Shown here: positions 33,949 to 35,384 of the stretch, in pieces
How the letters are laid out: each line of letters begins with the position of its first letter
Position numbering within the stretch: the first letter of the stretch is position 1
DNA from: an uncultured Actinomycetota bacterium
GTDB taxonomy: Bacteria > Actinomycetota > Actinomycetes > Propionibacteriales > Nocardioidaceae
Direction of reading: 5' to 3'
NCBI GenBank assembly: GCA_963754025.1
Contig: CAVWEC010000002.1
Location: 50,566-114,565 of the forward strand
Length of the DNA: 64,000 bases
Made by a program: the position numbers and the translations under genes
Notes under the pieces: generated by a model
What the model saw: the letters and a program-made list of their open reading frames with translations, nothing else
The model's database searches: none
What the model was told of the DNA's origin: nothing

Positions 33949-34977
33949 ATGACGTTCAGCGTGGCGGTCGCCGGTGCCAGCGGGTATGCCGGCGGCGAGG
34001 TGCTCCGGATCCTGCTCGGCCACCCCGGGGCCGAGATCGGCGCCCTGACGGGCGGTTCCAACGCCGGGCAGCGGCTGGGGCTCCTGCAGCCCCACCTGCT
34101 CCCCTTGGCCGACCGGGTCCTGGAGGAGACGACACCGGCGACGCTGGCCGGCCACGACGTGGTCGTGCTGGGGCTCCCGCACGGTCAGTCCGGCCCGCTG
34201 GCGGCAGCCCTCGGCGACGACACGGTGGTCATCGACTGTGGGGCCGACTACCGGCTCGAGGACCCCGCGCTGTGGGAGAAGTTCTACGGCGGCGACCACG
34301 CGGGTGCCTGGCCCTACGGCCTGCCCGAGCTCCCGGGTCAGCGAGACCGGCTGCGTGGCGCGCGGCGGATCGCCGTGCCGGGCTGCTACCCGACCGTCTC
34401 CACGCTCACCATCGCTCCGGCGCTCGCGGCCGGCCTGGTCGAGCCTGAGGTCACGGTCGTGGCGGCCTCCGGCACCAGCGGGGCCGGCAAGGCCGCGAAG
34501 CCCCACCTGCTGGGCAGCGAGGTGATGGGCAACGCCAGCGCCTACGGCGTCGGCGGAGTCCACCGCCACACCCCCGAGATCATCCAGAACCTGCGCCGGG
34601 TCACGTCGGGTGACGTGCGGGTCAGCTTCACCCCGACGCTGGTCCCCATGCCGCGCGGGATCCTCGCCACCGTCTCGGCTCCGCTGTCCGGCGACGTCAC
34701 CGCCGCCGCCGCGCGGGCGGCCTACGAGGCGGCGTACGCCGACGAACCGTTCGTCCACCTGCTGCCTGAGGGCCAGTGGCCCCAGACCCAGTCGGTGATC
34801 GGCTCCAACGCCGTGCAGCTCCAGGTCACGGTCGACCCGGACGCCGGCCGGCTGGTCGCGGTCGGTGTCGTCGACAACCTCGCCAAGGGCACCGGGGGCG
34901 CGGCCGTCCAGTGTCTCAACCTCGCGCTCGGACTCGACGAGACCGAGGGCCTGTCCGCCGTGGGGCTGGCGCCGTGA
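33949..34977 (+). CDS. argC: N-acetyl-gamma-glutamyl-phosphate reductase
   Basis: [44 protein letters not shown]. Confidence 0.98.
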
Positions 34978-35384
34978 GCGGAGCGTCCCTCGCCCTCGTG
35001 CGCCACGAGGAGGAGCTGGCGGTGGTGCGCCTCGGCCCCGGCAGCGAGGTGCCCGACTGGGCGACGTCGAGCACCCTGCTGTCGATCACGGCGACGGCCG
35101 AGGAGACCTCCGTGGTGTGCGCTGCGGCCGCCGTCCCGGCGCGGGCGACCAGTGAGGGCCCGTTCGTGGCCTACCGGGTCGACGGCACCCTCGACTTCTC
35201 GCTCACCGGCGTGCTGAGCGACCTGCTCGCGCCCCTCGCGGCGGAGGGCATCCCCGTCTTCACGCTCTCGACCTACGACACCGACTGGGTGCTCGTGCCC
35301 GCCCCGCGCGCCGACGAGGCCGCTGCCGCGTGGACCGGCGCCGGGCACCCGGTCACCCCGGCCGTCCAGGAGGACCCCGCATGA
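34974..35384 (+). CDS. Stand-alone tandem ACT-like protein (ACT_7 / CASTOR-like)
   Basis: [19 protein letters not shown] and [36 protein letters not shown]; GTGA and ATGA overlaps with argC and argJ. Confidence 0.85.

Follow-up and report, generated by a model that had tools for sequence, protein, structure and literature searches.

A half-size relative of CASTOR1 encoded between argC and argJ in actinobacteria, probably an arginine-pathway sensor

The gene described here encodes a small ACT protein and lies inside the arginine biosynthesis operon of an uncultured Actinomycetota bacterium of the family Nocardioidaceae. The whole stretch of DNA that was analysed, referred to as the window, comprises 64,000 nucleotides (GenBank assembly GCA_963754025.1, contig CAVWEC010000002.1, positions 50,566 to 114,565 of the forward strand). 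The gene, called the ACT gene below, is located between argC and argJ, and its product corresponds to one half of the animal arginine sensor CASTOR1. The gene and its homology are secure. Since a half-size relative of CASTOR1 is built into the arg operon of many actinobacteria, the ACT protein is probably an undescribed sensor of the arginine pathway.

The seven genes from argC to argR occupy positions 33949-40086 of the window (Table 1). All of their junctions are start/stop overlaps of 4 nucleotides, either GTGA or ATGA, and the operon forms a single unbroken overlap chain with the ACT gene on the same strand as the arg genes. The GTG start codon of the ACT gene (34974-34976) overlaps the TGA stop codon of argC (34975-34977), and its TGA stop codon (35382-35384) overlaps the ATG start codon of argJ (35381-35383). 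The original prediction, a note made from the sequence alone, had given this open reading frame, a product of 136 amino acids and the coupling to argC and argJ, and all of this was found as claimed. The G+C content at third codon positions (GC3) was 0.96 in the ACT frame, 0.94 in argC and 0.95 in argJ. The start at position 34974 is backed by the closest named homologue, from Nocardioides aestuarii, which has the same length and aligns with 82% identity and 100% coverage. In the databases the homologues were named 'ACT domain-containing protein' or 'hypothetical'. Only one other match to ACT_7 was present in the genome of the window, an open frame of 444 codons that was taken to be an aspartate kinase.

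Table 1. Features of the arginine operon in the window, and fusion loci from other genomes
Feature	Position	Strand	Basis or remarks
ACT gene, stand-alone A9CJY8-like/ACT_7 protein (half-CASTOR), 136 amino acids	34974..35384	+	GTG start, TGA stop; translation, Pfam, GC3, homologues, AlphaFold2 model
A9CJY8-like N-terminal ACT-like half-domain, residues 14-56	35013..35141	+	PF21631; aligned to CASTOR1 'FFSLTETPEDYTLMV'
ACT_7 domain, residues 65-118	35166..35327	+	PF13840, 56.9 bits; model secondary structure
Strand-to-helix loop LDFSLTGV, residues 73-80	35190..35213	+	equivalent of the CASTOR1 G274-I280 loop holding the arginine backbone; G79 invariant
STYDTD hairpin, residues 99-104	35268..35285	+	equivalent of CASTOR1 S299-D304; alignments
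argC, N-acetyl-gamma-glutamyl-phosphate reductase, 342 amino acids	33949..34977	+	Pfam Semialdhyde_dh and Semialdhyde_dhC_1, E 3e-56
argJ, ornithine acetyltransferase/N-acetylglutamate synthase, 383 amino acids	35381..36532	+	Pfam ArgJ, E 6.8e-120
argB, N-acetylglutamate kinase, 309 amino acids	36529..37458	+	Pfam AA_kinase; ATGA overlap with argJ
argD, acetylornithine aminotransferase	37455..38633	+	Pfam Aminotran_3
argF, ornithine carbamoyltransferase	38630..39559	+	Pfam OTCace_N and OTCace
argR, arginine repressor	39556..40086	+	Pfam Arg_repressor and Arg_repressor_C
argG, argininosuccinate synthase, long form, 477 amino acids	40133..41566	+	similarity only (tblastn)
GNAT-ACT fusions (4)	L108, L113, L120, L127		
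ACT-GNAT fusions (6)	L111, L112, L115, L117, L119, L121		

Two Pfam domains were recognised in the ACT protein, A9CJY8-like_N (44 bits, E 1.5e-11) followed by ACT_7 (E 1.9e-15), and both exceeded the gathering score of 27 bits that applies to either model. No NCBIfam model matched the protein. A sequence search with the ACT protein yielded 646 homologues at E<=1e-3. The residues P55, G79, S99, T100, T103, D104 and L107, which were invariant in an alignment of 70 sequences, are all present. The AlphaFold2 model built from this alignment reached a predicted local distance difference test score (pLDDT) of 93.2 and a predicted template modelling score (pTM) of 0.86. When the model was compared with the PDB using Foldseek, the top match was Atu0741 (1ZHV) with a template modelling (TM) score of 0.86 and 1.9 A root mean square deviation over 129 columns. 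CASTOR2 with bound arginine (9KPG) was matched with a TM score of 0.74, CASTOR1 with 0.72-0.74, VC0802 (1ZVP) with 0.73, and aspartate kinase regulatory subunits with 0.60-0.65.

A profile of the family matched only three families in the PDB, namely Atu0741 (E 4.5e-37), CASTOR1/2 (E 1.7e-22) and VC0802 (E 1.8e-4), and no aspartate kinase was matched at E<0.01. The match to CASTOR1/2 consisted of two stretches, one for each CASTOR half; the alignment of the N-terminal half-domain began at CASTOR1 residue 39. In a single-sequence search the ACT protein matched CASTOR proteins at E 8.5e-9 to 3.5e-6 and Atu0741 at E 7.8e-15. The ACT protein belongs to the Atu0741/A9CJY8-like family and is genuinely homologous to one CASTOR half. 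It is not itself a CASTOR, because it has a single ACT pair in 136 residues and not two pairs, that is four ACT domains in about 330 residues.

The original prediction had quoted the CASTOR1 motifs FFSLTETPEDYTL, LSTYQTDFILV and GFDECGIV...ISTFNFDHALV and had seen an ACT_7/CASTOR-type repeat in the ACT protein. The motifs were correct and aligned to the family in the HMMER output, and the resemblance was borne out by the profile match over both CASTOR halves and by the structure comparison, in which CASTOR1/2 came next after Atu0741. The suggestion that a homodimer could rebuild the arginine pocket was supported to this extent: the protein is a single CASTOR-half unit, and two copies of one half could in principle rebuild the pocket between ACT domains. 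The original prediction had also proposed arginine or ornithine as the sensed compound, and control of ArgJ, ArgB or ArgC in trans. CASTOR1 and CASTOR2 are the cytosolic arginine sensors of mTORC1 (5I2C, 5GS9, 9KPG). They have in common with the ACT family the Gly loop and the STxDTD hairpin, whose Asp binds the guanidinium group in CASTOR1, and both they and the ACT protein are associated with arginine. Unlike CASTOR1/2, the ACT protein has half the length and one ACT pair, so that two copies would have to pair to form a pocket; it is also bacterial, and a GATOR2/Mios partner is not expected.

The occurrence of the ACT gene was determined in a sample of 121 Nocardioidaceae genomes, of which 27, from 11 of 60 genera, contained a homologue. 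The gene was located directly upstream of argJ and on the same strand in 24 of 26 relatives; of the two exceptions, one was a paralogue with 39% identity and the other was due to a contig break. In a sample of the class (401 genomes) all ten further matches of the same genus adjoined argJ, as did matches in two other families. Eleven matches in other families were not linked to arg genes, and four more, for which no argJ was found, were left unscored. A scan of one genome per species gave 595 relatives, and the best 80 loci were examined for their context. The order argC-ACT-argJ was present at 48 of these, with argB and argD following at 47, and two more such loci came from the class sample (about 50 in total). 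The hosts were Nocardioides, Marmoricola, Pedococcus, Phycicoccus, Knoellia, Ornithinibacter, Marihabitans, Piscicoccus, Kineosporia aurantiaca and uncultured Actinomycetota; several of these genera belong to the Intrasporangiaceae/Dermatophilaceae. The linkage is therefore not a peculiarity of one strain, as argC-ACT-argJ-argB-argD recurs across genera.

The ACT start codon overlapped the argC stop codon by 4 nucleotides at 44 of the 48 loci, which also supports the start assigned in the window. An overlap of the ACT stop codon with the argJ start codon was found at 33 of 45 loci, with a length of 4 nucleotides at 29 and of 1 nucleotide at four. Position and overlaps have been kept in no fewer than three actinobacterial families, among proteins of 41-67% identity. 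All argC-ACT-argJ loci fell into one clade of a maximum-likelihood tree. The support for this clade was weak, with a value of 81 in the Shimodaira-Hasegawa-like approximate likelihood ratio test (SH-aLRT) and of 55 with more rows; none of 500 shuffles of the labels was as clustered on the tree as the argC-argJ label. In genomes without the ACT gene, including three of the same genus, argC overlaps argJ directly. The ACT gene is therefore a clean, dispensable insertion, and the earlier view that it does not belong to the canonical arg operon was correct.

A passenger gene that was inserted by chance and has no role in arginine metabolism would also be dispensable and missing from many relatives, and other members of the family do occur in unrelated neighbourhoods. 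The conservation data nevertheless make this explanation very improbable, since position and overlaps were retained across families at the protein identities given above and a second position in arg clusters is conserved in another class.

This second context was found outside the argC-argJ clade. In a metagenome-assembled genome (MAG) of Rubrobacteraceae the order was argC-argR-ACT-argG, with argJ-argB-argD on the divergent strand, as identified with Pfam. The family was present in 60 of 101 genomes of the class that contains this MAG. Thirty loci were fetched, and 25 had argR upstream and argG downstream of ACT, or argG alone at a contig end; argC likewise lay upstream wherever the fetched stretch reached it. 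The remaining five loci were second copies elsewhere in the genome. ACT directly followed argR at seven of the 25 arg-linked loci and otherwise followed a gene for a GNAT acetyltransferase or a metallo-beta-lactamase-fold protein. The latter gene, encoding about 256-260 amino acids (Pfam Lactamase_B_2/B_3), adjoined ACT upstream or downstream in 11 of the 25 clusters (L105, L106, L108, L109, L110, L115, L116, L118, L122, L123 and L126).

The members of the argR-argG group show the residue signature that is generic for the family and lack the derived one seen in the argC-argJ clade. In the best tree they formed a clade of their own, and a single clade with the argC-argJ group was not rejected by the approximately unbiased (AU) test (p 0.425). 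For this reason two operon positions in two classes are claimed here, and not two independent recruitments. No arg genes were found at the examined loci of members from Acidobacteriota, Chloroflexota, Gemmatimonadota, Bdellovibrionota, Cyanobacteriota and others. The members without linkage to arg genes had no consistent neighbours; their 122 neighbours comprised 133 Pfam families, and the largest group consisted of five radical-SAM genes. The arginine clusters are the only conserved context found for the family.

The location of ACT downstream of argR in the Rubrobacteraceae-containing class, and the presence of argR in the same operon in the window, could also be explained by an action on gene expression, in which the protein might, for instance, partner ArgR or the operon mRNA in a ligand-dependent way. 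Such a role is highly unlikely, however, as Pfam revealed no nucleic-acid-binding domain in the protein and ArgR itself binds arginine. The overlaps of 4 nucleotides with enzyme genes on both sides would moreover fit expression together with the enzyme set and would be atypical for a transcription factor.

In this class, 13 of the 25 arg clusters encoded a GNAT acetyltransferase immediately next to the ACT module. Ten of the 13 were in-frame fusions between argR and argG, with one open frame without a stop codon, and both domain orders occurred (Table 1). In a library of 1.84 billion representative proteins the family had 6,456 members at E<=0.001. Among the best 150, which were inspected, 48 had at least 240 residues; an additional Acetyltransf_1 domain was present in 18 of these and Acetyltransf_3 in eight, and every partner other than GNAT occurred in at most two of the 48. 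GNAT is the dominant fusion partner family-wide. The other partners included NUDIX, TetR, Maf and response-regulator domains, and the ACT-Maf fusion was confirmed in protein P0167. One Actinomycetes member outside an arg cluster was fused to a different GNAT of the Acetyltransf_3 type (L011:4519-5475, minus strand, genome G221, GC content 50%).

The fusions inside arg clusters, which the original prediction had not foreseen, point to acetyltransferases as the output of the ACT module. No curated model of N-acetylglutamate synthase (NAGS) matched the GNAT of the arg clusters above its cut-off. The nearest solved relatives of this GNAT include the PA4866/phosphinothricin acetyltransferase group, which acetylates glutamate analogues. 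A new short NAGS, possibly one regulated by arginine, is a candidate function of the ACT-GNAT and GNAT-ACT fusions in these clusters. ArgJ is the other enzyme that makes N-acetylglutamate. Because the module fused to GNAT in arg clusters parallels the module coupled to argJ, ArgJ is named as the likeliest target in the window, and the assignment of ArgJ or of an N-acetylglutamate-forming acetyltransferase as the target is tentative, with clearly less than even confidence.

Small GNAT proteins encoded within arg clusters or close to them, in some cases joined to another arg-related domain, are known from the short GNAT-only NAGS and their fusions (S-NAGS Rv2747, ArgH-fused H-NAGS and C-NAGS Cg3035; PMC4490483, PMC3827942, PMC1382215), and it has been stated in a review that partners of short NAGS 'cannot be ruled out' (PMC4490483). 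The ACT-fused GNAT in arg clusters fits this pattern, yet it matches no NAGS model above cut-off, and in contrast to the known fusions the ACT gene of the window is fused to no GNAT. Short NAGS were also considered as partners in trans. The Rv2747 type was found in none of the 121 Nocardioidaceae genomes. The Cg3035 type gave only matches below cut-off in 86 of the 121, both with and without the ACT gene, and no usable correlation was obtained. The genome of the window (G000) itself contains a diverged gene of the Cg3035 type outside the window (C5:1452458-1453333, minus strand), which matched NF049894 in two pieces of 77.6 and 42.2 bits at a cut-off of 280 bits. This gene may encode a separate NAGS and a trans partner of the ACT protein.

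The sensor might instead act on ArgB, with the ACT dimer docking on N-acetylglutamate kinase (NAGK) and tuning its inhibition by arginine, as PII does on NAGK in cyanobacteria and plants. ArgB is the classical arginine-controlled step and central in feedback. In the argC-argJ clade its gene belongs to the overlapping operon that contains the ACT gene, and in the Rubrobacteraceae MAG the two genes share a cluster, with argB on the divergent strand. The ACT gene, however, never adjoins argB in either architecture, the recurrent fusion partner is an acetyltransferase and not a kinase, and no residue of ArgB tracks the presence of the gene. ArgB is an unlikely target.

Two further features flank the seven genes in the window. 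The product of argG, downstream, has 79-82% identity to Nocardioidaceae loci in tblastn comparisons, and 32-39% identity to the ArgG regions of the Rubrobacteraceae-containing class, of which that of locus L079 was confirmed by Pfam. A frame at 32882-33904 on the plus strand, which ends about 45 nucleotides before argC, contains a stretch resembling an FHA domain by appearance (TTIGSDPSCDVVLSGL...).

The putative ligand pocket was compared with that of CASTOR1, which binds L-arginine with micromolar affinity; the substitution D304A abolishes arginine binding. CASTOR1 binds GATOR2 (Mios) via Y118, Q119 and D121, and the equivalents of these residues in the ACT protein of the window, by alignment offset, are Y101, D102 and D104. 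In the CASTOR1 structure the side chain of D304 contacts the guanidinium group of arginine and that of S111 the alpha-amino group; the guanidinium group is also held by the carbonyls of G274, T300, F301 and F303, the carbonyl of V112 contacts the alpha-amino group, and the backbone of I280 and E277 the carboxylate (PMC5187391). According to the alignments D304 corresponds to D104 of the window protein, and G274, T300, F301 and F303 correspond to D74, T100, Y101 and T103. The equivalents of S111 and V112 are P94 and V95, and those of I280 and E277 are V80 and L77. The residues S99, T100, T103, D104 and G79 were conserved at 90-100% in each of three groups, and D104 at 96-100% in all groups compared. 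Ser occupied the position equivalent to S111 in 72% of the argC-argJ clade; the figure for the argR-argG group was 68%. The conservation of hairpin and loop would fit a CASTOR-like amino-acid pocket between two chains.

The ligand of such a pathway regulator could be a compound other than arginine, such as ornithine, citrulline, N-acetylglutamate, glutamate/glutamine, lysine or a polyamine, and the control would then be exerted across pathways or at the level of an intermediate. ACT domains bind many amino acids. The pocket of the window protein is more acidic than that of CASTOR1 (D74, D102 and D104 versus G274, N302 and D304) and would suit any cationic ligand, the clade-specific W105 adjoins D104, and the equivalent of S111 is Pro. 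On the other hand, the closest characterised homologues bind arginine, and both conserved genomic contexts are arginine clusters. We consider a different ligand rather unlikely. Arginine itself is the ligand that we propose, with a confidence just short of even.

Several observations weigh against a dedicated arginine sensor acting on ArgJ. The gene was absent from about 78% of the sampled Nocardioidaceae and from three sampled genomes of the same genus, and its role, whatever that be, is dispensable. The window protein has Pro where the arginine-contacting Ser is located in CASTOR1. D104 and the hairpin are conserved in all members, including those far from arg genes, and also in the N-terminal half of CASTOR1, which does not bind arginine; D104 thus looks necessary but does not discriminate for arginine. 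The argC-argJ clade has replaced residues that are otherwise conserved (C18V, L45T, G63P, W64F, Y105W, K109P and L120W), which suggests a change of partner or ligand relative to the rest of the family. No close homologue of the arg-cluster GNAT was found in the genome of the window, and this GNAT was missing from 10 of the 12 genomes of the Rubrobacteraceae-containing class with an unfused ACT gene, some of which are incomplete MAGs; it was rejected as an obligate partner on these grounds. Finally, no residue of ArgC, ArgJ, ArgB or ArgD perfectly separated the operons with the ACT gene from those without, in a comparison of low power.

Despite these points a dedicated role of the ACT protein in arginine metabolism is likely. 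In the mechanism that we propose, two copies of the protein would pair like the two halves of CASTOR1. The pockets between the domains would be lined by the STxDTD hairpin and the G79 loop, which are homologous to those of CASTOR1, and may bind L-arginine or a close metabolite of the pathway, as suggested by the homology and by the two conserved arg-cluster contexts. Once liganded, the protein would regulate an N-acetylglutamate-producing enzyme allosterically, as a subunit acting in trans; in the window this enzyme is presumably ArgJ. In some members of the Rubrobacteraceae-containing class the target would be the GNAT acetyltransferase to which the same module is fused. The outcome would be a layer of feedback additional to ArgR and to any arginine inhibition of ArgB. 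The full statement, according to which a dimer of the protein senses arginine or a metabolite near it in the pathway and controls an acetyltransferase that forms N-acetylglutamate (ArgJ in this case), is put forward tentatively and with somewhat less than even confidence.

The nearest structural relative, Atu0741 from Agrobacterium, has the same two-domain architecture and the same size as the ACT protein. Atu0741 is a structural-genomics protein without an assigned function, whereas the ACT protein belongs to a derived subclade (V18, T45, P63, F64, W105, P109 and W120) that is locked between argC and argJ. Small ACT-pair proteins that are co-encoded with the enzymes of one amino-acid pathway are also known as regulatory subunits, namely the aspartate kinase beta subunit, IlvH/IlvN and the GlyXS-GlyXL system (PMC13759103). 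By analogy with the aspartate kinase beta subunit or IlvH, the ACT protein is a candidate for a regulatory subunit of the stand-alone ACT type. The regulatory subunits of aspartate kinase were the next-best structural matches to the model, yet they gave no sequence match at the threshold applied. The fold of CASTOR1 has been likened to the ACT domains of prokaryotic aspartate kinases (PMC5187391); judged by sequence, the family described here is much closer to CASTOR than those kinases. Actinobacterial protein acetyltransferases of the AAPatA type also combine ACT and GNAT domains and are regulated by Cys or Asn (PMC6434083). Their ACT domain is described as having the loop motif DxPGxL, classical ACT domains served as the basis for modelling it, and it differs, by description only, from the A9CJY8-like/ACT_7 pair. 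A transfer of the ligands Cys and Asn to the ACT protein was rejected, as the two kinds of ACT domain do not look alike by description.

A full-text literature search with the family identifiers COG3603, 1ZHV, Atu0741, A9CJY8, PF21631 and PF13840 returned only an unrelated methods paper and no account of the bacterial family or of Atu0741. Nothing relevant was found on bacterial CASTOR homologues or on an ACT protein in arg operons either, which agrees with the earlier statement that stand-alone bacterial members have no known ligand. What is new is the pathway to which a candidate ACT regulatory protein is assigned here, and its evolutionary link. Arginine biosynthesis is among the best-studied regulated pathways, and its known controls are ArgR, the inhibition of NAGK and NAGS by arginine, and the action of PII on NAGK. 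To our knowledge, these do not include a dedicated ACT sensor encoded in the operon.

It was proposed earlier that the CASTOR module derived from lysine-binding aspartate kinase domains. A different and speculative origin, which we consider rather unlikely, is that the A9CJY8-like/ACT_7 proteins are ancient bacterial sensors of arginine or another basic amino acid. Their original job would have been feedback on glutamate-committing acetyltransferases, that is ArgJ or GNAT-type NAGS, and the module of CASTOR1/2 would be a duplicated descendant of them and not a derivative of lysine-binding aspartate kinases. If arginine binding and the modulation of ArgJ or of a GNAT-type synthase hold true, the ACT protein would be a new regulatory subunit of relevance to the engineering of arginine- or ornithine-overproducing actinobacteria. 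It would also provide the first function for a family that counts at least 6,000 protein clusters and has a 20-year-old orphan structure (1ZHV). The arginine-sensing module of mTORC1 signalling would gain a concrete ancestor in bacteria, and simple proteins could then be used to test where CASTOR came from.

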